Made by a program: the position numbers and the translations under genes. The notes under the pieces are model-generated. The model made no database searches. It had not been told where the DNA came from and was given only the letters and a program-made list of their open reading frames with translations. Of a stretch of 64,000 nt of DNA, positions 3,787-46,021 are shown piece by piece. Every line of letters starts with the position of its first letter. Positions within the stretch are counted from its first letter, which is position 1. Source of the stretch: a virus (taxonomy: Duplodnaviria > Caudoviricetes); the IMG/VR virus record IMGVR_UViG_3300019129_000002, positions 891 to 64,890 of that record; one strand, written 5' to 3'.

Positions 3787-3815
3787 TTGTCAGAGAGGCT
3801 AAAATCTGTTATAAT
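3787..3815 (+). promoter_or_regulatory. Promoter TTGTCA-N17-TATAAT heading the modification cluster
   Basis: Recurrent promoter family. Confidence 0.75.
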
Positions 3816-3939
3816 AGGGTCAGCAACTCAAAACGGGTTATGACCCGTTGGGTCAAGGTTCTAACGGACACTTCAACAATAAAGTTTAGCCCTTCACACA
3901 AGATAGAATAAACTAACTTAGGAGGTTTTACGAAGTAAA

Positions 3940-4569
3940 ATGTGTGCAATATTTGGGTGTGCCTTAGACAAAGCCACCTCTTATCAAAAACAACTATTGG
4001 AAGCAATAGGCAGAGAGTCTCAGATCCGGGGGAAGCACTCTACAGGGATTTCTTACATCCGTTTTGGAGTAATACGGACAGTAATCAAAACCGTACCCTC
4101 TAACCTATTCTTCGACGAAGTTATTGAATGGAAGTCTCCCGATAATCTTCGATTAATAGGACATTGTCGTTATCCTACATCTGCTTTGCGTTTCAATCAA
4201 CCCCTACACTCTCCTGAGTTATCTATGGTGCATAACGGGGTAATCAGTCAACTCCCTAAAGAAAGATGGTTCGATGAGTTTGGTCTCCAGACAGAGACAT
4301 CCAATGATTCCGAACTTATCCTAAGAGCGGTTGAGCAAGGTCTTGATCCAATAAAGTATTTCCCTGATGCTTCCATCGCTATGGCTACCTTAACGAAGGA
4401 AGGGGATATCCATGTCCAGAGAAACGGGAAACGTCCCTGTCACTTTCACCCTGTAGAGAATGGTTTTTTCTTCTTCTCAACCAAGAGTATAGGTGTCAGA
4501 GCAGGGGTTCCAGAAGAAGACATCATCAAAGTAAAATCTTACGGAAAAGAACATATTGAATACAACTAA
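3940..4569 (+). CDS. Class-II (Ntn) glutamine amidotransferase
   Basis: N-terminal MCAIFG (catalytic Cys2), RGKHSTG, GHCRYPT, NQPL, HNG and DSE. Confidence 0.9.
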   Translation: MCAIFGCALDKATSYQKQLLEAIGRESQIRGKHSTGISYIRFGVIRTVIKTVPSNLFFDEVIEWKSPDNLRLIGHCRYPTSALRFNQPLHSPELSMVHNGVISQLPKERWFDEFGLQTETSNDSELILRAVEQGLDPIKYFPDASIAMATLTKEGDIHVQRNGKRPCHFHPVENGFFFFSTKSIGVRAGVPEEDIIKVKSYGKEHIEYN

Positions 4570-5422
4570 GACCTGGGGCTACGAAATAGAATGGGGTGAT
4601 ATCCCTCGATGTTTACCTATTCCCGAACATCTAGGCTCGTGGGAATATGCTGAGGTTGACATTTTAAATCTTCGAGAACCTTATGCACTAATGGGGGTTG
4701 ACCCTTTAGGTTTAGAGCCCCCTGTGGGAGGAGAAATCAACACCACTCCTGACAAATCTATCAAGGAACAAGTGGATAAGATTATCCGTCTCAGAGACTT
4801 ATTCATTGATTCAGGTTATCCTCCTACTGCATCCCTTGTTAATCATGGGCATTTACACGCATTTGTAAAAGGTTTGAAGGAAGATGTTCAAAGTCTAAAG
4901 AAACTGACCCGTTACATCCTGGATAATCAAGAAGACCTTATTAGAGCTTGCTATCAGTTCAAACCTGACCTAGAAATGAAGAAGCTGAAAAATGCGACTA
5001 GCTATCTGAAACTGGACGGAGGACGAATGATGCCTGAATGGATGGGCAATAACGTTATTAACATGGCAGAAAGCTTTGAGGACTTCATTCGGATCCAATG
5101 TTGTGGAAAGGATGGAGTAAGCAGAGGGAGACCCTTCCGTTATGCAGTGAATACTTATTGTATGAAACATACAGGGACTATAGAGTTCCGTTGCTTCCGT
5201 AGTTCCACCAAACGAAGAGAGATTGAAAGTTGCTTCCGTATAGCGGAGAGGTTTATTGATAGTGCGTTGGGTGATCAAAAGCCTATAAAGGAAATCCTCC
5301 AAGAAGAAGAGTTCACTTTCCCTCCTTTTGTTTGGAACGCCGAACATTACAAAGCGTGGATTGAAACCAAGTGGGACAAATCTCGTGGTAACAAAAAACG
5401 CCAGTTTATAGAACTCTTGTAA
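4556..5422 (+). CDS. Putative amidoligase (COOH-NH2 ligase, glutamine-synthetase/GCS2 fold)
   Basis: TWGYEIEW, GGEINT, HGHLH and TIEFRCF motifs; overlaps the GATase gene. Confidence 0.75.
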   Translation: MNTTKTWGYEIEWGDIPRCLPIPEHLGSWEYAEVDILNLREPYALMGVDPLGLEPPVGGEINTTPDKSIKEQVDKIIRLRDLFIDSGYPPTASLVNHGHLHAFVKGLKEDVQSLKKLTRYILDNQEDLIRACYQFKPDLEMKKLKNATSYLKLDGGRMMPEWMGNNVINMAESFEDFIRIQCCGKDGVSRGRPFRYAVNTYCMKHTGTIEFRCFRSSTKRREIESCFRIAERFIDSALGDQKPIKEILQEEEFTFPPFVWNAEHYKAWIETKWDKSRGNKKRQFIELL

Positions 5423-5467
5423 CCTAACGGGTAAAATCCTCTGATGAATTAAATTAGAGGAAACCCC

Positions 5468-5998
5468 TTGGAAATTAGAGAGTGCAATAAAGAGATATTT
5501 AAATTAGCTTACGAACAGAGTAACCCAAAAAATAACAAGTTCGCTAAAACTTTTATGTCTAAAGCGAAGGTAATGGAGTTATGGGATAAATGCTTCGGCA
5601 TATATGATCCTAATGGCTCTCTTTTGGGAGCAGTGGTGGTAACCCTTTCTAAAAGGAAACCCCTTGTCGCTAACTTACAACTTCTCCACGTCTTCCATGA
5701 GCATCGAAAAAACGGTTATGGTAGATGTCTGATGGAGTTTGCACTTTCTCACGCCGTGGATCAAGGGGCAGAATATTTCAGAGTATCTTCCGAACCGTCA
5801 GCAGTTAAGTTCTATGAGAGCTTAGGGTTGCGGATGATATGTGAACAGAAGAGTGGTTCTCAATTATCTTTTTCTAAGATAGGGGGCAAAACTTTTGATC
5901 TTTGTTATAATGATAGTGAGGACACTCAGTTCCAAAAAGTAATCAACCATAAAGGTCGGGGTGGTTGCGTAAAGCTTCTTAGAGAGGGCAAACCCTAG
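5468..5998 (+). CDS. GNAT acetyltransferase
   Basis: LHVFHEHRKNGYGRCLM (motif A) and AVKFYESLG (motif B). Confidence 0.9.
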   Translation: MEIRECNKEIFKLAYEQSNPKNNKFAKTFMSKAKVMELWDKCFGIYDPNGSLLGAVVVTLSKRKPLVANLQLLHVFHEHRKNGYGRCLMEFALSHAVDQGAEYFRVSSEPSAVKFYESLGLRMICEQKSGSQLSFSKIGGKTFDLCYNDSEDTQFQKVINHKGRGGCVKLLREGKP

Positions 5999-6038
5999 TC
6001 CCATCTTTTTTGGTGATCTACCTTGTGCCTCCGGGTGT

Positions 6039-7100
6039 GTGAGGAATGTTAATGAAACTAAGAAAGAAAGGATGTACCAAACTTCTAGGAAAGAACAGTT
6101 TATCGAATGGTTCCGATGGGGAGTAGCTAACGGAGATTGTGACTCAGCTCTCTGGATGATAAACTATCTTAACAAACGTTACGAACACAACACGGAAGAA
6201 AAAATTTGGCTGTGTTGGCTCTACGGTAACACCTACTACTTGCCAACATCTTGGCTTCTTAAGCAAGAGTTTCCTGATGAGGAGCTTGCCAGTTACGAAA
6301 GACTTGATAAATGGAATACAGAAAACTACAAACGTCTAAGGTATCAAACCGATACCAAGTGGTCTAAGGGTCATCTACCTGAGATGTATCAGAGTTATCA
6401 TGAATGGCTGGGTGGCAAGACTCAACTTGAACGAATAAACGAGTTTGTCACAGATGATGAACAAGAGACCTTTGACAACCTTTGGAAAGAAGTCAAGAAG
6501 AAATGGTTTAAGTTCGGTAGATATACCGCTTGGTTTTATCTGCAAACTTTGAAGCACACGGTGAGTATCTCTATGGAACCTGCCACCCTGATGCTAAATG
6601 ACTACTCAGGGAGTAAAAGTCATCGGAATGGTTTAATCTACGCTTTAGGGTTGGAGGGCTCTGGATGGTTGAATAAAAAGCTAACCATTGATCAGTACCA
6701 GTTCTTAGAGGGGGAGGCTTCTGAAATCCTTGAGGAGTGTCACAGGCGTTTTCCTGAACTTAAGGGGCAGATGGATAGGTTCGCCATGGAAACATCCCTT
6801 TGTTCATTCAAGAAGCTCTTCAGGGAGTCCAGGGGCCGTTACATGGGTTATTACCTTGATCGGCAATCCGAAGAAATCATGAGGGTGGAAAAGGATGGTT
6901 GGTTCGGAGTGGATTGGGAAGTCCTCTGGGATGGCAGAGAAGAAGTTATCGGTGAACCTTTAGCTCCTCTTTATGGGCGGGTTGACAAAAGCAAAATGAA
7001 GTTATTTGTAGAAGAAGGGAGGTTCCATTATAAAAGTGATCGGATTCATAGGGTGTCCAGCGTCCGGAAAGTCAACTCTAATGAGACGGTTAATGTCTGA
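6039..7100 (+). CDS. Amino acid:DNA transferase (alpha-glutamyl/putrescinyl-thymine pyrophosphorylase clade 2-like); likely ATG at 6072
   Basis: WLYGNTY, FGRYTAWFYLQTL, ETSLCSFKK and RYMGYYLDRQ signatures; adjacent P-loop kinase. Confidence 0.8.
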   Translation: MRNVNETKKERMYQTSRKEQFIEWFRWGVANGDCDSALWMINYLNKRYEHNTEEKIWLCWLYGNTYYLPTSWLLKQEFPDEELASYERLDKWNTENYKRLRYQTDTKWSKGHLPEMYQSYHEWLGGKTQLERINEFVTDDEQETFDNLWKEVKKKWFKFGRYTAWFYLQTLKHTVSISMEPATLMLNDYSGSKSHRNGLIYALGLEGSGWLNKKLTIDQYQFLEGEASEILEECHRRFPELKGQMDRFAMETSLCSFKKLFRESRGRYMGYYLDRQSEEIMRVEKDGWFGVDWEVLWDGREEVIGEPLAPLYGRVDKSKMKLFVEEGRFHYKSDRIHRVSSVRKVNSNETVNV

Positions 7101-7530
7101 GATAGGAGATGAATGGGAGTTAGTTCAGGAAGGAATGATCCGGTTTCATTTCAATGCTCAGAAGAACGTTATGGTGATGGGGATATATGATGATAAAGTT
7201 TTTAGTGGAACTGACCGTCTAGCTAAGAACGTGGGGCCAAAGTTCCGAGAATGGATTTCTGCATTCCACGAACAAGACACCGTTACCATATTGTGGGAAG
7301 GAGAGAGATTCTCTAACAACCCTACTATCCAACATCTGTTAAAAACTGTAGATACTGAACTCTATCTAGTGGAAGCTCCAGAGGAAGTTCTAGAAGAACG
7401 TAATCGTAATCGGAGCAACCAGAATGACAAGTGGCGTAAAGGTATGAAGACTCGGATTAACAATCTGGTTAAAAAATATCCTATCAAACCCTTGTCTGAG
7501 TTCGACAAAAATGTTATAATGAAAAAGTAA
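7036..7530 (+). CDS. P-loop nucleotide kinase of the family linked to DNA hypermodification
   Basis: GCPASGKST Walker A, FSGTDRL, WEGERF; overlaps the transferase gene. Confidence 0.8.
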   Translation: MIGFIGCPASGKSTLMRRLMSEIGDEWELVQEGMIRFHFNAQKNVMVMGIYDDKVFSGTDRLAKNVGPKFREWISAFHEQDTVTILWEGERFSNNPTIQHLLKTVDTELYLVEAPEEVLEERNRNRSNQNDKWRKGMKTRINNLVKKYPIKPLSEFDKNVIMKK

Positions 7531-7547: not shown

Positions 7548-7730
7548 ATGCCAACTTTAGAACCCCCTGATAGAAGACCCGACGGGAGAATAAAGAAGCC
7601 TGAACCCGTTGAAGTAAACCCTCTTGCTGGTTTGACTAGTGACCAGTTGCTTGATAAGAGAAATGTTTTTAAGAAACTGAAGCAACCCTTAAACGAAATT
7701 GATGCAGAACTAAAAAGAAGACATGGTTAA
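7548..7730 (+). CDS. Hypothetical protein
   Basis: AGGAG RBS; promoter at 7492-7520. Confidence 0.6.
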   Translation: MPTLEPPDRRPDGRIKKPEPVEVNPLAGLTSDQLLDKRNVFKKLKQPLNEIDAELKRRHG

Positions 7731-8562
7731 AACACCTTTACGATACCCTGGGGGTAAATCCCGAGCAATCAAACATCTGAAAGGCTTTCTCCCTTATCTT
7801 GGGAATGAGGAGTTTGAAGAGTTCTGTGAACCCTTTGCAGGTGGGGCTTCGGTCTCCATCTATATTTCTCAACTTTACCCAGAACTAAAAATCTGGATCA
7901 ATGACATCTACACCCCTTTATACAACTTCTGGATTACTTTGCAGCAAGAGCCTATGGAGCTTATCCCCGAGTTGGAAAAGATAAGAGTAGAAACTGTCAA
8001 TCTAGAGGATGACCTCCGACACAGGAAGTGTAAAGAGAGGTTCCTGCAAGCCAAGGAAGAACTGGATTCAGAAGATCCTATAGTCAGTGCCATCAGTTTC
8101 TACATCGTTAACAAGTGTGGATTCAGTGGTATGATTACAGGTTTTTCTAAGAGTTCATCCGATAAAACGTTTACTCTCAGAGGAATAGAAAAGCTCTGGT
8201 TAGTAAAACACCTTATCCGAGATTGGTCTATTACCAATCTATCCTATGAGGACTTGCTAACTAATAGTCAAAAGACCTTTATTTATCACGACCCTCCCTA
8301 TGAAATAAACTCTAGTCTTTACGGGAAACAAGGAAGTGTCCATAAGGTTTTCGACCACGTTAACTTTGCTGAGAACTGCAACCTATTCACTTGTCCTCAA
8401 CTAATCTCTTACAATGATACTCAAAAAGTCACAGAGAGATTTTCGGGTTGGCATCAAGGCAGGTTTAAGCATCAGTATTCTATGCAGTCTGGTAAGAAGT
8501 ACCGAGAAAATCAAAAGAAACGTCACGAGTTAGTCCTATACAACTACGAACTGGAGGAATAA
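7723..8562 (+). CDS. dam: Dam-like (D12 class) DNA adenine methyltransferase
   Basis: KTPLRYPGGKSR, EPFAGGAS and DPPY. Confidence 0.9.
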   Translation: MVKTPLRYPGGKSRAIKHLKGFLPYLGNEEFEEFCEPFAGGASVSIYISQLYPELKIWINDIYTPLYNFWITLQQEPMELIPELEKIRVETVNLEDDLRHRKCKERFLQAKEELDSEDPIVSAISFYIVNKCGFSGMITGFSKSSSDKTFTLRGIEKLWLVKHLIRDWSITNLSYEDLLTNSQKTFIYHDPPYEINSSLYGKQGSVHKVFDHVNFAENCNLFTCPQLISYNDTQKVTERFSGWHQGRFKHQYSMQSGKKYRENQKKRHELVLYNYELEE

Positions 8563-8768: not shown

Positions 8769-8878
8769 TTTCCCTCTGAAAACATGGTCAAACCACTACC
8801 AAGTTGTTATAATATAAATGAACACTCCAAAGAAAAGCCTTTGGATTTCTGTGTTCCACTAAATAGGAGAAATACCGA

Positions 8879-12905: not shown

Positions 12906-13382
12906 ATGAAACTTATGGATAAATGGGATCAAAGGTTTTACAACCTTGCCAAGAATGTATCGGAGTGGTCGAAAGACCCTTCAAAGAAAGTCGGAGCCGT
13001 GATAGTTGATGGAAGAAGAATCATTGCAACTGGCTACAATGGACTACCTCACGGGATAGAAGACAATGAACGATTATTTGATAGAGAATGGAAGCTCAAA
13101 GTTGTTATTCATGCTGAGGTCAATGCTATCCTCAACGCCGCTAAGAACGGAGCTTCTACCAGAGGATGCACTATCTACGTTAATATTCCCCCCTGTTCTA
13201 ATTGTGGAGCATCTATTATTCAAGCTGGCATCCGTCGAGTAGTGTGTCCAAGTTTTGAGGAGTATAACGGAAACTGGAAAGAAAGTTTTCAGCTTTCCAA
13301 AGATTTGTTAACAGAAGCCGGAGTAGATTATGAAAACCCCGAAGAAATGTCCCACGTGCGGATTAGTAGTTATCCCTCTTGA
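12906..13382 (+). CDS. dCMP deaminase
   Basis: SKDPSKKVGA, TGYNG, HAEVNA and PCSNC. Confidence 0.95.
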   Translation: MKLMDKWDQRFYNLAKNVSEWSKDPSKKVGAVIVDGRRIIATGYNGLPHGIEDNERLFDREWKLKVVIHAEVNAILNAAKNGASTRGCTIYVNIPPCSNCGASIIQAGIRRVVCPSFEEYNGNWKESFQLSKDLLTEAGVDYENPEEMSHVRISSYPS

Positions 13383-14213: not shown

Positions 14214-14518
14214 TGATAGACATTAAGATTATTGATGAGAACTGTCCCATTTGCCATAGCTTTAAAAAGATTGATAGTTCTCTTTTCTTCAACTTGATTG
14301 AAGTCCCCTTTGACCAAATCAGTGAGAATGACCCTTTCTATGAACACATGGAAATCAAGTTCTCAGAACAAATGGTTCACCTTCCTTTATACATCTTTGA
14401 AATTTTAGATGGAGAGTTCTTTTCATTCACACCGGAAAATCAAGCACAACTAAAAAAATATGCCACAACAATCTCAAGTATCCGTCAAGAAGTTAACCGC
14501 TATGGCCAAGCTACCTGA
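14213..14518 (+). CDS. Thioredoxin/glutaredoxin-like protein
   Basis: N-terminal CPIC and downstream LP. Confidence 0.5.
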   Translation: MIDIKIIDENCPICHSFKKIDSSLFFNLIEVPFDQISENDPFYEHMEIKFSEQMVHLPLYIFEILDGEFFSFTPENQAQLKKYATTISSIRQEVNRYGQAT

Positions 14519-14903
14519 ATACGCCCACCCTGGCGACTCAGGAATGGATATCTATTCTGTAAAGGAGTTCACCCTTAGACCAGGGGAACGGAAGATTATC
14601 TCAACAGGATTGCAACTCACCTATCTTCCTGTAGGATATGAAATCCAAGTCCGGAGTAAAAGCGGAATAGCTCTCAAGTATGGTGTTACTGTCCTCAATA
14701 GTCCTGGCACGATTGACTCTGGATACAGAGGTGAAATCAAAGTAATCCTTATCAACCATAGCGACATATTGTACGTTGGTAAGAAGGGTCAAAAGATTGC
14801 TCAATTAGTAGTGCAAGCCGTTGAAAGGTTCACAGTTATTGAAGACCACGGAGTCGTTGAGAGTTCAAGAGGAGAAGGTGGGTTCGGTTCTACAGGAGTT
14901 TAA
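14460..14903 (+). CDS. dut: Trimeric dUTPase
   Basis: GDSGMD, RSKSG, GTIDSGYRGEI and RGEGGFGSTG. Confidence 0.95.
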   Translation: MPQQSQVSVKKLTAMAKLPEYAHPGDSGMDIYSVKEFTLRPGERKIISTGLQLTYLPVGYEIQVRSKSGIALKYGVTVLNSPGTIDSGYRGEIKVILINHSDILYVGKKGQKIAQLVVQAVERFTVIEDHGVVESSRGEGGFGSTGV

Positions 14904-16838: not shown

Positions 16839-17032
16839 CAATGGTAGGCGTAAAACTAGAGTTCTTCATCGGTGAAAAAGTTTGGCACAAACTGAAAAAA
16901 TGTGTTATAATGAAGGTACAGACAAATGAAAACACTTTTTCTCTTTTCAATGGCTGTCACCATACTTCGCGGTTTAGCAATCTTTCTTAGTGACCCTCGG
17001 ATACCTTATACAAAATCTTGCAGGTAAACAAC

Positions 17033-17524
17033 ATGAACATCTTCGTCTTATCAACTAATCCCGTCGAGTCTGCTAAACTGCACCCCTCTAAAGTTCTTAA
17101 CAAAATGGCTTTGGAAGGTTGTCAAATGTTAGCGACCGTTTTCTCTGAACATTATTTAGATTGGGGAACATTACCTAAAAAAGATGGAACGCCTTACAAA
17201 CCCACCCATAAGAACCACCCCTGCGTTAAGTGGATCACCGAAAGCCATAGTAACATTGCCTGGACAATAGTTCACTCTATGGCTCTCGCTCTGGAACATC
17301 GTGACCGCTATGGCAAGCTGCCTGCTACTTACCGCACTCTTCAAAAAGCTAAAGAGTTATTTGAGCGACACACTCGCTACAAGCTTCTTCATTACCAAGT
17401 TCTTTCTGACGAACATTTCGTAAGAGCAATGATTGAGGATATCAAAACTGATTCCAAAATAACCACAGTGGAAGCATACCGAGCATACATCAAAACCAAA
17501 CCTTATTTTGACGGGAGATTTTAA
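17033..17524 (+). CDS. Pyrimidine-dimer DNA glycosylase / DenV-like protein
   Basis: MNIFVL...KMALEGCQML...YKPTHKNHPCVKW...VEAYRAY family signature. Confidence 0.75.
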   Translation: MNIFVLSTNPVESAKLHPSKVLNKMALEGCQMLATVFSEHYLDWGTLPKKDGTPYKPTHKNHPCVKWITESHSNIAWTIVHSMALALEHRDRYGKLPATYRTLQKAKELFERHTRYKLLHYQVLSDEHFVRAMIEDIKTDSKITTVEAYRAYIKTKPYFDGRF

Positions 17525-23825: not shown

Positions 23826-23896
23826 GCTCCCTTAGCTCAATGGTAGAGCAACTGTCTCGTAAACAGCCGACGTCGGATCGTTACCGACAGGGAGCT
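23826..23896 (+). tRNA. tRNA-Thr(CGT), no encoded CCA
   Basis: Acceptor GCTCCCT/AGGGAGC, D-arm GCTC-AATGGTA-GAGC, anticodon loop CT-CGT-AA, T-arm GTCGG-ATCGTTA-CCGAC. Confidence 0.85.
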
Positions 23897-28691: not shown

Positions 28692-29186
28692 ATGGAACAA
28701 ATATTACACTTTATGAAAAAATGCGAGGGTAGTTGGATTTCACACCGTCGCTACATCTATTACCCTAAGCAAACCATAGTAAACTCTGTAAATGAGTTTA
28801 CCTGTGAGTTCTTAGGATTAAAAGAAATAAAGCCATTACAAGAAGCCATAGGACATCCGGTTATTCTCGGGAATAAAATCACTTGGCATTCTTATCCTTT
28901 GGGGAACCCTTCTAAAACTATTTCCGAAGGAGAAATGGTAATTGCACCTGAAGGGGGTAAACTTTATCGGAGCAGAGGTTACTCCACTATGGAAAAAACT
29001 CATTCAAAGTTTACCTGTGACAGAGGTGGAACAAAGCTAAGAACCATCACTTCTTACGGTGGGGAGATTTATGAGGAGGAGATTTTATTCGTGGATGACG
29101 ACCATCGCATCCGGAAGAACATCGGCCGTGATTTAGAAACAGGTATTATTAAGTTAGTGGGGCAGTATTTTGAGCAAAGAGTTTGA
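28692..29186 (+). CDS. CpcS/CpeS-family phycobiliprotein lyase
   Basis: FMKKCEGSWISHRRY, LYRSRGY, TSYGGEIYEEEI, RIR and VGQYFEQR. Confidence 0.75.
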   Translation: MEQILHFMKKCEGSWISHRRYIYYPKQTIVNSVNEFTCEFLGLKEIKPLQEAIGHPVILGNKITWHSYPLGNPSKTISEGEMVIAPEGGKLYRSRGYSTMEKTHSKFTCDRGGTKLRTITSYGGEIYEEEILFVDDDHRIRKNIGRDLETGIIKLVGQYFEQRV

Positions 29187-30968: not shown

Positions 30969-31811
30969 ATGACTAAACCCCTTTTTATGTGGGCAGGTGG
31001 AAAGACCAAAAGGATCAAGCATTACCAACCTTTCCTTAAAAAAGTTACCTCTTATTGTGAACCTTTCTTTGGGGGAGGAGCTATGTTCATCCACATGAAA
31101 AAAGAGTTTGGTATAAGAGAGGCTTATATAAATGATATTCATCTTGAAGTCATGGATATTTACCGTACCATTAAATTTGATGTAGAAGGTTTTCTTAAAA
31201 TCCTGGAAGATTTAGAAAGAATCTATATGCCTCTGGACAAAGAGGGGAGGAAGGGTTACTATTACGACCTGAGGAACAAAAATGCCTGGGATTATAAAAT
31301 GTGGGACTTAACTCAACGTTCTGCTATCTTATACTTCCTGATGAGAACCTCCTTTAACGGTATCTACGAACTCAGAAAGAATACAAATGGAAGGTATGCA
31401 ACCTCTTGTGGAAAAGTAGACCAGAAGAAGGAAGTCTTTTCTAGAGAAGTAGTCAGGTGGTGGCATAAGAACCTTCAAGATGTAACCATTACCCACGGGA
31501 ACTGGAAGGAAAATCTACCAGAAGGTGACATCTTTTATTTCTTAGATCCTCCGTACAGAGGGACAAGAATGAAATACGGTACAGGATTTAGTGATCAAGA
31601 TCTGGAAGACCTCTTAGAGTTCGCCAAAGATAAAAAGTCTATGGTTTGCAACCAAGACTTAGGAGATGGATGGTTTGATAGCTACTCCGATGACTTCCAT
31701 ATACATAGATTCCCCATAACCTACACAGTCGGAGTAAAGAAGAAAACGCCCGATGGTTACAAAGCCAAACCAGCTACAGAAGTTCTATTATTACCAAAAG
31801 GAGGAAAGTAA
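30969..31811 (+). CDS. dam: Second Dam-like DNA adenine methyltransferase
   Basis: KPLFMWAGGK, EPFFGGGA, SFNG and LDPPY. Confidence 0.9.
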   Translation: MTKPLFMWAGGKTKRIKHYQPFLKKVTSYCEPFFGGGAMFIHMKKEFGIREAYINDIHLEVMDIYRTIKFDVEGFLKILEDLERIYMPLDKEGRKGYYYDLRNKNAWDYKMWDLTQRSAILYFLMRTSFNGIYELRKNTNGRYATSCGKVDQKKEVFSREVVRWWHKNLQDVTITHGNWKENLPEGDIFYFLDPPYRGTRMKYGTGFSDQDLEDLLEFAKDKKSMVCNQDLGDGWFDSYSDDFHIHRFPITYTVGVKKKTPDGYKAKPATEVLLLPKGGK

Positions 31812-40702: not shown

Positions 40703-42478
40703 ATGGAAACTAATCCTCTAGGTTATCCTGTCCTAAACAAAAAGAACGCAAAAAAGATTTTCGGTAACTTGAAACCGAAGAACTTTGATCCCTGGGGTAT
40801 AGAAAATGCTAAGAGAAACCTTAAAAAATTTGGTATTCCTGTCCCAGTTTATTCAGAAGAAGTTTGGGAGGGTGACTTACCCGTCCCACCACTAAAGGGA
40901 GAGGATATTTTCTCTCATTTTGATAATGTAGCTAATGAACAAGTAGGGAGGTTTATAAAATATGGTGACGAACTGAAAAGTAACCGTGTACAAGTTGACT
41001 TTAATCTCTTATATCATAATAACATTTCTCCTTCTTTCAAGACTTTCGTAGATACCTTACTGGACCATGTTAAGGGTGGAGTGTGGTTGAGAGCGGAACC
41101 CGTAGTAATAGAGGACGGTGAGGTATTTCTCTTCTTGGACCATGTTGATACTCCCACGGAACCTGGGTTTATCTTTGACACAGAAACATTCGTAAAGTAC
41201 AAGAACTACCCAATCATCGGGACAGCTTGCTCCCACAAAGCTATCTATCTATGGATTGCTTCTGAACTGTTGGATCCGAGTCTTCCGAAGGAACAATGGG
41301 ATCAGTTCAACTTTATCAATGTAGGGACTGACAACTTTATTGTTGCCCATAACGCAGCGTTCGATAGAACTAGAACTCAGGCGGCTTACCAGTTAAACAA
41401 GCTTGGCCCTGATAACTTCTGGTTTGATACTCAGTCTGCTCACATTGCTGTCAGCGGGTTAGCTTCTGGTCAACGTTGGCTCTACGCTCTAAATGGGAAA
41501 GACCCTAGCTTACTGTCGGCTGCTGAGAAACGTAAGCTCCGTTACAAACCTGAATGGTTAGGAGAAGGTTCTACCAACTCCTTAGTCGAAGTTTATAACT
41601 TTCATGTTGCACAACCAAAGTTTCTACTTAACCCTGACACTAAGTTCCTGGGTGATGAAGACAAGGAAACTCGGGATATATTTGTTCTGTCAGAAACCTT
41701 GCAGGAGATTAAGGATCAACTTTACGTAGCCGTTGAGTACGCTATAAAGGACTCCCTCTACACCCATGAACTCTTCCAGGTGTTATGGGGGAAATATAAA
41801 GAAACGACTCCTTCTAAGATCGCTTTTGTAGGTCATTACCACCTTGGAGCATCTAAGGTTCCCTTAGTCCCTGATTGGGAAGAGTGGAAGGAAGAAGCCG
41901 AAAAGGTGTGGGAGTCTCGTAACCAGCAAATGGAAGACAACGTCAAAGCTATTGCTAAGAAAGAGTTCGAGAAGTGGCAAAAGTCTGTCCTTGACGAGAA
42001 AGCAGGAGTAGTTAAGTATATTCACAGTAACTACCCTAAGTTCATGCCTCTACTCTTCGGTTTCAAGACGATGGAGGAACAAATAGAATTTGTTGAGGAG
42101 TATGCCCACATTGATAAGTTTATTCGCAACTTCTGTAATAAGAAGGGTGAATGGACTTTCAAATGGGTAAAGGGTAGCAACAAGTTTAAACGCCCCGACC
42201 TTGACAAGCATATTCTAAAGTGGTTAGAACTGCTAGGGTTTGACTGGCATCCTAAGACTACTAAGATGATAGATGACGACTCTTGGATGCGTCAGCTTGA
42301 CTGGAAGTTTACGACTACAGGTACCTATGCCTATAAACCTAACTGGTATCGTAAGTTCCAAGAGAAAACTGTTTCAACTAAGAACAGAACTGCACACTTA
42401 TTATTGAGGCTTAAGTGGGATGGAAAGCCTATTTTATTTACCAAAGACAAAGGATGGTGTTTTGATGACGGAAACTAA
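40703..42478 (+). CDS. DNA polymerase gamma-like (family A), fragment 1: 3'-5' exonuclease plus linker
   Basis: ExoI FDTETFV, ExoII HNAAFDR, FDTQSAHIAVSGL, ExoIII YAIKD, and POLG-like LLRLKWDG...GW at the C-terminus. Confidence 0.88.
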   Translation: METNPLGYPVLNKKNAKKIFGNLKPKNFDPWGIENAKRNLKKFGIPVPVYSEEVWEGDLPVPPLKGEDIFSHFDNVANEQVGRFIKYGDELKSNRVQVDFNLLYHNNISPSFKTFVDTLLDHVKGGVWLRAEPVVIEDGEVFLFLDHVDTPTEPGFIFDTETFVKYKNYPIIGTACSHKAIYLWIASELLDPSLPKEQWDQFNFINVGTDNFIVAHNAAFDRTRTQAAYQLNKLGPDNFWFDTQSAHIAVSGLASGQRWLYALNGKDPSLLSAAEKRKLRYKPEWLGEGSTNSLVEVYNFHVAQPKFLLNPDTKFLGDEDKETRDIFVLSETLQEIKDQLYVAVEYAIKDSLYTHELFQVLWGKYKETTPSKIAFVGHYHLGASKVPLVPDWEEWKEEAEKVWESRNQQMEDNVKAIAKKEFEKWQKSVLDEKAGVVKYIHSNYPKFMPLLFGFKTMEEQIEFVEEYAHIDKFIRNFCNKKGEWTFKWVKGSNKFKRPDLDKHILKWLELLGFDWHPKTTKMIDDDSWMRQLDWKFTTTGTYAYKPNWYRKFQEKTVSTKNRTAHLLLRLKWDGKPILFTKDKGWCFDDGN

Positions 42479-43043
42479 AAAGGAATGTATCCTCCAGATA
42501 TGTGAGGATTTCGGTTCCAAGTACCCATTCAAAGTCCCTAGAACTGCAAACGAAGAGTCTTTTGATCGAAGTAGAATACACAATCTTAATCGTGATCCTA
42601 ATCAGTATAGTTTTTATCACTGGACCGGGAACGACACAATAAAACTCCCTTACTACTCACTATCTCAACTCTATGTCATCGCCTATAATGAAGCCTTTCA
42701 AAAAGAAAATAGTTTGCATGATGTCAGGTTGGGAGACGTGGTTCTTAGGGTTATTAAGTACGGGAAGAAAGAACCTTTTGGTCAACACTTGGATATCGAC
42801 TATGTTAGCTATACCGTCGCTTCAGTTAAGGATAATGAAGTAAAACTAAAAGGTAACATCCATTATGGACTTCAAGCTGAGAAGGTAGGGTTAGTGAAAG
42901 AGGCAACTCCTCACTATTTTAATCCTGATGGTGCGGACTTCTCTTTCGTCATGTTCTTTAACCTGCACTTTTCTACTAAACTTACAGACTATCAAAACGT
43001 GGGAGAATATTTAAATGCTTGCATCTACAAACACAGAGACTAA
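42465..43043 (+). CDS. Hypothetical protein inserted between Pol fragments (MTETKKE...)
   Basis: ATG overlaps the last codons of Pol fragment 1. Confidence 0.6.
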   Translation: MTETKKECILQICEDFGSKYPFKVPRTANEESFDRSRIHNLNRDPNQYSFYHWTGNDTIKLPYYSLSQLYVIAYNEAFQKENSLHDVRLGDVVLRVIKYGKKEPFGQHLDIDYVSYTVASVKDNEVKLKGNIHYGLQAEKVGLVKEATPHYFNPDGADFSFVMFFNLHFSTKLTDYQNVGEYLNACIYKHRD

Positions 43044-43359
43044 ACGTCTCGAGTTCATTAAACCTTATTTCTCCTTTAGGGGCGGATTTAATACAACTTG
43101 TCGTCTAGGGAAGAAGTGGTTCGACGCACTTAAGGGGGAGAAAGAAGTTCTTCTCACAGGTTATGAAGACCATCATGTTATCCGTGCTGAAGTGGTAACT
43201 ATTTCCTACAAACCTTTCTATCGACTCAGTACTATGGACGTAGCTAGTCACCAATATACTCGGGATTTAAGGAGTTTGGAACGGTTAATGAGGGAATGCT
43301 ATAGTTTGAAGTTCGACCCTGAAACTGCTTTCGTAACACTTGTAGGATTTGATATATGA
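43015..43359 (+). CDS. ASCH/PUA-like domain protein
   Basis: NTTCRLG...AEVVTI...F..L...L..LM..CY...VTLVGF pattern. Confidence 0.5.
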   Translation: MLASTNTETKRLEFIKPYFSFRGGFNTTCRLGKKWFDALKGEKEVLLTGYEDHHVIRAEVVTISYKPFYRLSTMDVASHQYTRDLRSLERLMRECYSLKFDPETAFVTLVGFDI

Positions 43360-43876: not shown

Positions 43877-44158
43877 ATGTTGGTGTCAAAGTCTTTAGTT
43901 GTCATGACACTTTACAAGAGTAAGGAAACGAAGGCTAAGCTCCTTAACTCCACCCGTGTCTATCTTCTGAAGGTTTACTACCTTGCTCAATCTGAAGACG
44001 CTCCTGAAAAGGAGGCAAAAATAGGTCGGGTCTTGTCAAACTACCCTATAACCAGTTATAATGACTTTGGTTACACCGAAATGTTTGAACTAAACCAACA
44101 CACAATGGAGTTTATAGAAAACTATGGTATTGCGTCAAATTCCTCACCCATCGGGTAA
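43877..44158 (+). CDS. Hypothetical protein (start probably ATG at 43904)
   Basis: Promoter at 43850-43878; overlaps the start of Pol fragment 2. Confidence 0.55.
   Translation: MLVSKSLVVMTLYKSKETKAKLLNSTRVYLLKVYYLAQSEDAPEKEAKIGRVLSNYPITSYNDFGYTEMFELNQHTMEFIENYGIASNSSPIG
44033..44062 (+). promoter_or_regulatory. Promoter TTGTCA-N18-TATAAT for Pol fragment 2
   Basis: Recurrent family; lies inside the upstream ORF. Confidence 0.7.
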
Positions 44159-44735
44159 GAAGGGGCAGAATGTTGGGGTTTTACTCTCAAAGGACTTCGT
44201 AAAGGCCCTGGAAAGTGGTCTGTTGAGTTCTGACTACCCTGAAGCTGAGGAAGCTCTTCAAATAGCAAGGGAGACAAGCTACTGGACATCTGTTAGGAAG
44301 AGGGTGTTTGACCGTATCTTCCGTGAGGTTAAAAACCCTTATGGTGAGAATGCTAACATCACTCTCCCTGACATTCTTCCACATGGAACCGTAACACGCC
44401 GAACCGTAGAAAACCTTATGGTTACGATGTGTAGCACCAAAAACTATAAAATAGGGTCTGAGCTAAAAACCCGTATCCAAGCTCCAGATGGTTGGAAGGT
44501 AGTGGGTGCGGACTTTGACTCTCAAGAGTTGAGTATCGCTGGTATCTATGCCGATAGTTGGGAGGGAGGGATAAATGGTTGCACAGCACTAGGTTTCCAA
44601 GTTCTATCTGGTTCCAAGGCAAAGGGTTCTGATGGACACACAGTCTTTGCACGTAACATGATGGAAGAGGAGTACAAAGATCTTTACTTTGATCCAGAAC
44701 TCGGCATCTTAGAAAAGGTTACTATTGATGAGTAA
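44124..44735 (+). CDS. DNA polymerase gamma-like, fragment 2: thumb/palm with motif A
   Basis: IPHPSG..NVG.LLSKDF, SYW, GTVTRRTVE, GSELKTRIQAPDG and VGADFDSQEL. Confidence 0.9.
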   Translation: MVLRQIPHPSGKKGQNVGVLLSKDFVKALESGLLSSDYPEAEEALQIARETSYWTSVRKRVFDRIFREVKNPYGENANITLPDILPHGTVTRRTVENLMVTMCSTKNYKIGSELKTRIQAPDGWKVVGADFDSQELSIAGIYADSWEGGINGCTALGFQVLSGSKAKGSDGHTVFARNMMEEEYKDLYFDPELGILEKVTIDE

Positions 44736-45205: not shown

Positions 45206-46021
45206 ATGGATTACCCTACAAAGACCTTAAAAGACGGGACAGAAGTTTATCAAATCAACGGTGAGTGGTATAAAAAGATTGACAAGGAAAGGAAAGCTCT
45301 CCTAAAAGAATATAGAGAGTGTGCCAAAGTCTCTAATTATAGCATTCTTTACGGGGGAGGGGCTTATGCTTCCTCTATACCTTGGAAACAATCTTTCCCT
45401 ATGATGGATCAGGAAGTTCTTTTTAGCAAGCTTAAAAAAGCCATGGTTAAAAAGAAGGGAGTAAGAGATAAGGAAACTGGACATCTCAGAGGAGGTACAG
45501 ATTCCGAAGCTTTTTGTAAGATGGAACAGATTGCTCTGAAAAGTAGGGTTCCCACGTTGCCCGCACTGGGGACTCAAATCACCACGGCTCTAAGACCCAA
45601 GGCAGTAAACAGTGACTTCGTAACGGGTAGGTTGAATTGGGGAATCCAATGTTCCGGATCTGAGTTCTTAGCTATCTTCCTAACTGCCATCCATTGGTTA
45701 GCAGAGGAAAAAGAAATCCCTTGTCAGTTCATCATCTCCATCCACGATGAAATCTGGTTTATGGTTCCCGAAGAGTATGCTTCGGCATTCGTGGTCTTAT
45801 TTCAGATTGCTCACGTTTTTACATGGGCTTACTTCCAAGCTGCTTGTGGGATCTACGAGTTACCTTTGGCAAGAGCTTTCTTCTCAGGTGTGTCATTAGA
45901 TGACAGAGTGAGGAAGTCTCCTTACGAATGTACCAAAACTCTAAGCAACCAGAAAGACGAGTCTGATGGGGAAGAAATCACCATGTGGGACTTAGAAAAA
46001 CGCGGTTGGTTACATGACTAA
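45206..46021 (+). CDS. DNA polymerase gamma-like, fragment 3: fingers/palm with motifs B and C
   Basis: RECAKVSNYSILYGGG, GGTDSEAF, RLNWGIQCSG, ISIHDEIWF and FFSGVSLDDRVRK. Confidence 0.9.
   Translation: MDYPTKTLKDGTEVYQINGEWYKKIDKERKALLKEYRECAKVSNYSILYGGGAYASSIPWKQSFPMMDQEVLFSKLKKAMVKKKGVRDKETGHLRGGTDSEAFCKMEQIALKSRVPTLPALGTQITTALRPKAVNSDFVTGRLNWGIQCSGSEFLAIFLTAIHWLAEEKEIPCQFIISIHDEIWFMVPEEYASAFVVLFQIAHVFTWAYFQAACGIYELPLARAFFSGVSLDDRVRKSPYECTKTLSNQKDESDGEEITMWDLEKRGWLHD

Follow-up and report, generated by a model that had tools for sequence, protein, structure and literature searches.

What base would a virus make with a cassette that joins a glutaminase, an ATP-dependent amidoligase and an acetyltransferase to the kinase and amino acid:DNA transferase of a thymidine-hypermodification system? 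Such a cassette lies at positions 3940–7530 of the 64,000-nucleotide stretch of viral DNA analysed here, called the window throughout (bases 891–64890 of the linear, 64,890-base IMG/VR virus record IMGVR_UViG_3300019129_000002). Its five genes, together with a TET/JBP dioxygenase gene elsewhere in the window, very probably encode a post-replicative thymidine hypermodification pathway, which should convert thymine to a bulky, amide-bearing base. Thymidine-hypermodification systems, of which this cassette is a member, were reportedly defined by Lee et al. in 2018 (and 2021). Such modifications guard phage DNA against restriction, and new enzymes and DNA chemistry can be found through them. At stake here are the possible supply of an amino acid:DNA transferase by a glutaminase and a first substrate for the phage Amidoligase_2 family, which is said to have been described in 2009 and whose role has reportedly been open since. 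The cassette type is common: its transferase clade occurs in at least 589 IMG/VR stretches, found with an alignment query where a single-protein query had found nothing, and in 1356 protein clusters at E ≤ 1e-10.

The cassette and its enzymes

Five open reading frames (ORFs) on the + strand make up the cassette. The glutaminase and amidoligase genes overlap by 14 nt (4556–4569) and the transferase and kinase genes by 65 nt (7036–7100), and a Dam methylase gene follows, all as described in a first-pass annotation made from the sequence alone. The arrangement is non-random, the same gene set and orientation recurring in 72 non-redundant IMG/VR loci. The genes assigned to the pathway are:

3940–4569, + strand: stand-alone class-II (Ntn) glutaminase domain, a class-II glutamine amidotransferase (GAT), 209 aa
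4556–5422, + strand: ATP-dependent carboxylate-amine ligase of the glutamine-synthetase/GCS2 fold, Amidoligase_2-like, subfamily I (AML), 288 aa
5468–5998, + strand: GNAT N-acetyltransferase, 176 aa
6039–7100, + strand: amino acid:DNA transferase (ADDT, also AADT) of aGPT-Pplase clade 2, 353 aa
7036–7530, + strand: P-loop kinase (KIN), probable 5-hydroxymethyl-dU DNA kinase, 164 aa
33618–34877, + strand: TET/JBP 2-oxoglutarate (2OG)-Fe(II) dioxygenase, 26 kb from the cassette

The assignment of 6039–7100 to the ADDT family was borne out by a match to Pfam PF18724 at 79 bits (E 5.6e-22) against a cut-off of 26.2, residues 47–263 of the protein covering positions 16–230 of the 232 in the profile, and by a match to phrog_3271 (E 7e-52). 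Its nearest characterised relative is gp247 of phage ViI, a serine:DNA transferase that is 28.7% identical over 296 residues and is matched by the family profile at 141 bits. The same profile gave no significant match to M6 gp51, PaMx11 gp46 or PhiW-14 gp109. Homologues at ≤31% identity occur in 380 of 50,697 phage records, with ViI-like phages leading. No ADDT fusion was found in the best 120 of the 1356 protein clusters, all of them single-domain proteins of ~340 aa. In the window ADDT is paired with the kinase gene that overlaps its 3′ end, and the TET/JBP gene lies in the same record.

The kinase carries a Walker A motif (GCPASGKST, residues 6–14) and matches AAA_33 at 33.1 bits and Ploopntkinase3 at 26.0 bits (cut-off 27). 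It also matches phrog_800 (E 8.8e-15), which is labelled ‘terminase small subunit’, a label that RefSeq likewise gives to the characterised kinases M6 gp54 and PaMx11 gp49. In a search of a 13-sequence database the kinase family profile found PaMx11 gp49, M6 gp54 and ViI gp243 at 12–21 bits, the range being 12–24 bits with the kinase of phage Simon included. The kinase and the transferase together support the earlier view of the locus as a thymidine-hypermodification cassette.

The TET/JBP protein scores 74.6 bits against Pfam Tet_JBP (cut-off 34.9), and conservation over 51 sequences covers its iron triad and 2OG arginine (H269-x-D271, H321 and R333); judged by family and motif, it is a probable thymine dioxygenase making 5-hydroxymethyluracil (5hmU) in DNA. 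We give it the first step of the pathway because of its family, because phage T-dioxygenases have been published, and because no C5-methyltransferase, thymidylate-synthase homologue or dUMP hydroxymethylase was found in the 64.9-kb record, which is ~30% complete by CheckV. A dCMP deaminase (12906–13382) and a dUTPase (14460–14903) are encoded in the window, and their presence with no thymidylate-synthase homologue found fits ordinary T being incorporated and then oxidised in DNA.

GAT passes the cut-off of Pfam GATase_6 narrowly (27.4 bits against 27). Its N-terminus, MCAIFG, places a cysteine directly after the initiator methionine, and C2, R30, G31, H75, R77, N99, G100 and D123 are invariant across 27 sequences; R77, N99-G100 and D123 we take to be glutamine-site residues, on their roles in PurF. 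Against PDB sequences the GAT profile had 16 matches, eight of them PurF (including the best, E 5.8e-11), five GlmS and three asparagine synthetase. Since all 16 are ammonia-releasing enzymes and the Cys, Arg, Asn-Gly and Asp positions are invariant, GAT looks like a genuine glutaminase. Stand-alone Ntn amidohydrolases, which may all the same be kin, were not among these 16 matches. GAT homologues are present in 5 of the 50,697 phage records, at 26–30% identity.

The amidoligase itself falls below the cut-off of Pfam Amidoligase_2 (PF12224; 13.5 bits against 22), but at E ≤ 0.1 the profile picks up 26 of the 28 aligned family members (best E 3.7e-4), and it scores 26.1 bits on a subfamily-II relative (L101). 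Across the 28 sequences E10, E12, E60, N62, H97, H99, H101, R192, R195, E210, R212 and R215 are invariant; the acidic, histidine and arginine residues among them presumably bind metal, ATP and carboxylate. An AF2 model (pLDDT 93) aligned by VIA-align with YbdK (1tt4; Z 10.5, root-mean-square deviation 5.6, 222 residues aligned) and with a glutamine synthetase (Z 10.3, deviation 3.2, 183 aligned). Its 18 best PDB representatives, at Z 7.5–10.5, comprise only glutamine synthetase, glutamate-cysteine ligase, YbdK, gamma-glutamylmethylamide synthetase, PafA and Dop; below them come lengsin, a glutamine-synthetase relative, at Z 6.0 and the first unrelated proteins at about Z 5. Foldseek against the PDB also placed glutamine synthetases at the top, at a marginal E of ~1e-3, while the AML profile had no significant match among PDB sequences (best E 0.41), so that the superfamily is recovered by fold comparison only. 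Because the family-wide Amidoligase_2 matches, the invariant residues and the fold of the model agree, we uphold the weak Pfam call and assign AML, on sequence and model, as an ATP-dependent carboxylate-amine ligase. A homologue is present in one of the 50,697 phage records, that of phage Simon, and 84 IMG/VR stretches encode ligases 52–64% identical to that of the window. Subfamilies I and II are 27–31% identical to each other, a split that rests on pairwise identities, a quick tree having been flagged for long-branch joins.

The GNAT protein matches Acetyltransf_10 at 40.8 bits (cut-off 23.6), Acetyltransf_1 at 33.8 and Acetyltransf_7 at 33.2, all above cut-offs. It carries RKNGYG, fitting the acetyl-CoA motif R/Q-x-x-G-x-G/A, and its family profile matches PaMx11 gp48 at 20.8 bits in the 13-sequence database. 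The family assignments proposed for the five ORFs at first pass thus stand above the Pfam cut-offs for GATase_6, GNAT and ADDT, and fall below them for Amidoligase_2 and Ploopntkinase3.

Related loci separate a core from its tailoring genes

Related loci were scanned in every frame with profiles built from them. We gathered 157 IMG/VR loci, of which 112 were non-redundant and 72 spanned the interval from GAT through ADDT to KIN. All 72 are co-oriented. TET is present in 64, the remaining eight having less than 1.5 kb of sequence upstream of GAT, and in most relatives GAT is immediately preceded by the TET homologue. The layouts were of three kinds. The first, TET-GAT-AML-GNAT-ADDT-KIN, is that of the window's type (41/72) and has a ParB-like ORF between GNAT and ADDT in 15 loci; the second is TET-GAT-GNAT-ADDT-KIN (24/72); the third, TET-GAT-AML-ADDT-KIN, has a ligase of the second subfamily and no GNAT (7/72). 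Type-I AML is accompanied by GNAT in 41/41 loci and type-II AML in 0/7. The 41 loci that hold glutaminase, ligase and GNAT genes alongside ADDT agree with the co-occurrence in related genomes that the first-pass annotation had expected. In this analysis the cassette type was met only in uncultured viruses.

About half of the loci had been found via the ligase, and we hence made a separate count anchored on ADDT. This set was drawn from the nearest 80 of at least 589 loci, so its proportions are not population frequencies; it holds 62 non-redundant loci, of which the 27 with ≥3.5 kb upstream are informative. GAT is present in 27/27 of these, with GNAT only in 17, with AML and GNAT in six and with AML only in four, so that AML occurs in just 10. 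Across all three layouts ADDT is ~56–61% identical to that of the window. Because GAT is constant, the ligase and GNAT are variable and the ADDT identity is alike in all layouts, GAT goes with ADDT, KIN and TET as a core, to which the ligase and GNAT are added as interchangeable tailoring genes. Gene order can change with the set kept: locus L070 runs GAT-ADDT-AML-GNAT-KIN, with GAT and ADDT overlapping.

Some further genes recur at these loci. In the lineage of L070 and L071, KIN is followed by a radical SAM protein (L071:9869–11119; 28 bits, just under the cut-off). In 60 loci (for example L137:10017–10745 and L034:10962–11669) the next gene after the kinase is a conserved ORF of 231–242 aa without a Pfam match. 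We considered it as an alternative ligase and rejected this, as it occurs across all cassette variants but is missing from the window; it may encode another component of the pathway. A low-molecular-weight (LMW) phosphatase gene lies between AML and ADDT in 5 of the 7 GNAT-less loci. Homologues of LMW phosphotyrosine phosphatase that follow type-II AML score 56–64 bits (L101:7573–7995; L087:9857–10378, the latter in phage Simon), and the enzyme may remove unused phosphate from 5-phosphomethyl-dU.

Published associations and characterised systems

The gene association is already known, and the cassette is of a TET-linked, GATase-bearing metavirome cluster type. Lee et al. (2021, NAR, PMC8989533), in its searchable text, describes searches of IMG/VR2 and GOV2.0 with kinase queries and a group in which TET_JBP replaces the dUMP hydroxymethylase. 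The searchable text of O'Toole et al. (2026, PNAS, PMC13229309) reports ParB-dependent T-dioxygenases as ‘consistently linked with’ GATases, P-loop kinases and AADTs, and such dioxygenases are shown there to make 5hmU in DNA. The linkage of amidoligase and GAT to kinase, transferase and TET_JBP is published in these sources (PMC8989533; PMC13229309) with functions called unknown, and the searchable text of neither gives the GATase or the ligase a role. The remark at first pass that similar neighbourhoods may have been noted computationally was therefore correct. It had also been said that no characterised base is made by this enzyme set, and we likewise found no paper describing the product of an amidoligase-bearing hypermodification cassette in the searchable literature, figures and supplements lying outside the search.

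As to the ParB link, 35 of 80 ligase-anchored loci (for example L058:9388–10665, L018:9485–10804 and L005:9499–10800) have, between GNAT and ADDT, a fast-evolving ParB-like ORF of ~430 aa (ParB_N 14.6 bits), which is probably the T-dioxygenase activator described in the searchable text of O'Toole et al. (PMC13229309). About a third of the relatives, with such an ORF in the cassette, resemble the ParB-dependent clusters, whereas in the window, whose TET lies 26 kb off, none was found: neither ParB_N nor the ParB-like ORF of the relatives had a match in the incomplete 64.9-kb record.

The tailoring enzymes of the window are unlike those of any characterised pathway, namely those of M6, ViI, PaMx11, PhiW-14 and SP10. 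Phage PaMx11 shares with the window a kinase, a clade-2 AADT and a GNAT finishing enzyme. Its genes encode an AADT (gp46), an FAD lyase (gp47), an acetyltransferase (gp48) and a kinase (gp49), and its product is 5-acetylaminomethyl-dU; a thymidylate-synthase homologue provides the 5hmU, and glycine transfer followed by FAD-dependent cleavage provides the amine. According to the searchable text of Lee et al. (2021, PMC8989533), the product of the FAD lyase is 5-aminomethyl-dU, and it is this amine, not the glycine adduct, that the acetyltransferase uses. By contrast, the window has TET and GAT, no FAD enzyme, and an ADDT without significant similarity to gp46. In ViI, the source of the nearest characterised ADDT, the pathway makes 5-(2-aminoethoxy)methyl-dU via the pyridoxal-phosphate (PLP) decarboxylase gp226 and kinases; the window lacks a PLP decarboxylase and has GAT, an amidoligase and GNAT instead.

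Phage Simon (PQ683277, an unannotated sewage phage record) has, like the window, an Amidoligase_2-like gene inside an AADT/kinase cluster. This cluster encodes a Gly-type AADT (40% identical to M6 gp51), an FAD enzyme (41.6% to PaMx11 gp47), the ligase, an LMW phosphatase, a kinase (51% to PaMx11 gp49), Nmad5 and a thymidylate-synthase homologue. GAT was not detected in Simon (tblastn, E ≤ 1e-3), nor was there a detectable GNAT. The Simon ligase is of type II, 40–43% identical to the metagenomic GNAT-less type and 24% to that of the window, and it occupies the slot of the PaMx11 acetyltransferase, downstream of the gp47-like FAD lyase. From this position the simplest candidate for its substrate on DNA is the amine, and by analogy a ligase of this kind more probably acylates a DNA-borne amine. 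The ligase and LMW phosphatase form a module common to Simon and the metagenomic GAT and ADDT loci, which suggests that GAT with ADDT, and a glycine-type AADT with an FAD lyase, are two routes to one intermediate.

A proposed pathway and its alternatives

In the chemistry put forward at first pass, the glutaminase feeds the ligase, which amidates the carboxyl of an amino-acid adduct, and the amine of the adduct is acetylated. This fits the census poorly, with GAT in 27/27 informative ADDT-anchored loci and the amidoligase in 10/27. Since GAT and GNAT occur without an amidoligase in 17 of these loci, and since Simon has a ligase without a detected GAT, we assign GAT a role of its own, independent of the ligase.

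We propose that TET/JBP would oxidise thymine in DNA to 5hmU, and that the P-loop kinase, by homology to M6 gp54 and PaMx11 gp49, would convert this to 5-phosphomethyl-dU. ADDT would displace the phosphate with ammonia freed from glutamine by GAT, giving 5-aminomethyl-dU in a PurF-like reaction. The glutamine-synthetase (GS)-fold amidoligase, using ATP, would couple a free carboxylate, probably that of an amino acid, to the DNA-borne amine, and GNAT would acetylate the primary amine that remains, the predicted product being a neutral 5-(N-acetyl-aminoacyl-aminomethyl)-dU. Relatives lacking the amidoligase would arrive at 5-acetylaminomethyl-dU, the PaMx11 base, by a route other than that of PaMx11. 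In PurF, ammonia from a class-II glutaminase displaces pyrophosphate from phosphoribosyl pyrophosphate. The likeness, drawn from the top PDB hit to the GAT profile, is one of analogy and not of family membership: PurF has its glutaminase fused to the transferase and acts on a small molecule, whereas GAT in the window is separate and its proposed partner is an unrelated DNA-modifying transferase. We hold this ammonia-then-acylation chemistry tentatively, at somewhat less than an even chance. More tentative again is the general form of the proposal, in which class-II GAT and this ADDT clade would constitute a PurF-like DNA aminase, a GS-fold ligation would take place on the base, and at least three bases would come from one core. 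If true, the three tailoring sets (GNAT; ligase I with GNAT; ligase II with phosphatase) would lead to different bases. As far as we know, the ATP-dependent ligation of an amide bond on a DNA base would be without precedent.

Several points weigh against ammonia as the group that ADDT receives. The closest characterised ADDT, ViI gp247 at 28.7% identity, transfers serine, and we know of no ADDT that uses ammonia. Class-II GAT domains are usually fused to, or tightly bound with, their own synthase; here no GAT fusion was found among 466 candidates in a search for longer proteins (weak evidence), and in most loci GAT adjoins AML or GNAT, not ADDT. The constancy of GAT is moreover that of the nearest ADDT-anchored loci. 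For the ligase and GNAT to act on one aminomethyl group, the acyl donor must itself bear an amine, which is an extra assumption, and the analogy with Simon may not transfer, the ligase of the window being of a different subfamily (24% identity). The TET of the window stands apart from the cassette and has diverged further than those linked to cassettes, scoring 286.8 bits against the profile of the latter where the homologue of Caulobacter phage Cr30 scores 528. The individual steps are a proposal from sequence and analogy. GAT and AML overlap by 14 nt in the window and are neighbours in nearly all loci with both genes, and the pairing of Amidoligase_2 with GATase is described in the searchable text of PMC10580990 as widespread in phages, with no ADDT reported; overlap and pairing together argue for a partnership between GAT and the ligase. 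A complex prediction for the two proteins gave a score of 0.00 and no verdict, and is uninformative either way.

Such a partnership, assumed already at first pass, would be used if ADDT added an amino acid (O-linked serine, going by its nearest relative), the ligase amidated the carboxylate with ammonia from GAT and GNAT acetylated the alpha-amine, to give a neutral N-acetyl amino-acid-amide adduct. The kinship of ADDT with the serine transferase gp247 would then be explained directly, the overlap of GAT and AML and their neighbouring positions wherever both occur would follow, and the recurrence of the pair in other phages (PMC10580990, searchable text) would be accounted for. The constant company of subfamily-I AML and GNAT (41/41) is also what would be expected if both finish one adduct. 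As to the chemistry, it is established that the acyl-phosphates formed by GS-fold enzymes are attacked by ammonia, but characterised GS-fold ligases generally activate the gamma-carboxyl of glutamate and have the amine as their variable partner. GAT would moreover be idle in the loci without AML (17/27 ADDT-anchored, 24/72 overall), and phage Simon has its ligase but no detectable GAT, the ligase gene lying downstream of that for a lyase which would take off the part bearing the carboxyl. On balance we consider carboxyl amidation unlikely.

The fold of AML, like that of glutamate-cysteine ligases, gamma-glutamylmethylamide synthetase and PafA, invites another use of the pair, in which the ligase gamma-glutamylates an amine installed by ADDT, another step follows, and GAT, acting as an Ntn amidohydrolase, removes the glutamyl group. 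Transient handles of this kind have precedents in ergothioneine (EgtA/EgtC) and putrescine (PuuA/PuuD), GAT keeps the residues that presumably bind a gamma-glutamyl moiety, and Pfam is said to picture the neighbours of Amidoligase_2 as GAT-like thiol peptidases. We nevertheless find such a handle improbable: GAT occurs without any ligase in 24/72 loci, all 16 PDB matches of its profile are ammonia-producing amidotransferases, and adding and then removing a group would be an odd ending for a DNA modification pathway. Nor need GAT and AML act on DNA at all. The two could be an independent module whose target is a protein, a small molecule or the envelope of the host, with only the kinase, ADDT and GNAT touching DNA; the Pfam pair occurs in phages without hypermodification genes, where cell-wall modification or secondary metabolism has been proposed (PMC10580990, searchable text). 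At the loci studied here, in contrast, the pair sits between TET and GNAT/ADDT in 41/72 cases, ADDT lies between GAT and AML in L070, the Simon ligase stands between the FAD lyase and the kinase, and GAT accompanies the ADDT clade in 27/27 informative loci, which makes a module of this kind very improbable.

Promoter-like sites and flanking genes

Next to the five genes lie:

3787–3815, + strand: promoter-like site, TTGTCA-17-TGnTATAAT, with 11/12 consensus matches, 125 nt upstream of the GAT gene
7723–8562, after the cassette: D12-class Dam methylase (Pfam MethyltransfD12 93.2 bits)

The first-pass annotation placed the five genes behind one promoter. The consensus site is present, but the region holds 15 promoter-like sites where 14.2 are expected from shuffles, which is no excess, and a promoter ahead of the cassette is on that account only plausible. 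A search for a riboswitch in the 125-nt leader gave no Rfam family match. Four sites on the + strand (2695–2724, 3787–3815, 7492–7520 and 8785–8813) share TTGTCA or a near match, a 17–18 nt spacing and TG-n-TATAAT, lie before gene starts, and may represent a phage promoter class.

Besides the Dam gene after the cassette there are adenine-methyltransferase loci at 913–2096 and 30969–31811, the latter also a D12-class Dam. The locus at 913–2096 is Eco57I/N6_Mtase-like and seemingly split into two overlapping ORFs (913–1755 and 1752–2096), with the domain order apparently permuted.

Source of the window and related cultured phages

The record carries structural genes for tail sheath, baseplate, portal, protease and major head proteins, replication and nucleotide genes for a ribonucleotide reductase, a topoisomerase subunit, a primase and a split DNA polymerase, and genes for two sigma-like proteins, the second Dam and a CpeS-like protein. 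Its nearest cultured phage is Synechococcus phage S-CBWM1 (Aokuangvirus). Because the major head protein is 62.8% identical to its S-CBWM1 counterpart, the window is probably a fragment of a cyanomyovirus related to this phage, going by that protein. A CpeS-like phycobiliprotein lyase homologue lies at 28692–29186 (53.6 bits), and this gene together with the S-CBWM1-like capsid protein indicates a cyanobacterial host. Near-identical DNA was not present among the 50,697 phage records. S-CBWM1 encodes a TET/JBP protein (27.7% identity), and the genes after it are annotated as sugar-nucleotide enzymes; a search of this phage for homologues of the ligase and GAT of the window found none.

The cultured Caulobacter phage Cr30 (L165, NC_025422 51404–68666) has TET, ADDT and kinase genes of the same families and none of the three tailoring genes. 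There TET is annotated as ‘SNF2 DNA repair protein’, ADDT as hypothetical and the kinase as ‘terminase small subunit’; between them lie, as annotated, a cupin (‘cysteine dioxygenase’) and an inositol-1-phosphate synthase. Cr30 probably has another uncharacterised thymidine hypermodification.

Other observations on the window

The DNA polymerase is encoded in separate parts. The N-terminal part (40703–42478) contains DNApol_Exo and corresponds to positions 7–386 of phrog_22619, and the C-terminal part (45206–46021), 2.7 kb away, to positions 697–925; the middle section of the profile was not located in the window. Four ORFs lie between the parts (42420–43043, 43015–43359, 43877–44158 and 44124–44735), none with a Pfam match. 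A weak match to pyrimidine-dimer glycosylase (21.9 bits, under the cut-off) lies at 17018–17524. A tRNA-Thr (CGT) at 23826–23896 is the sole match of the whole-window Rfam scan.

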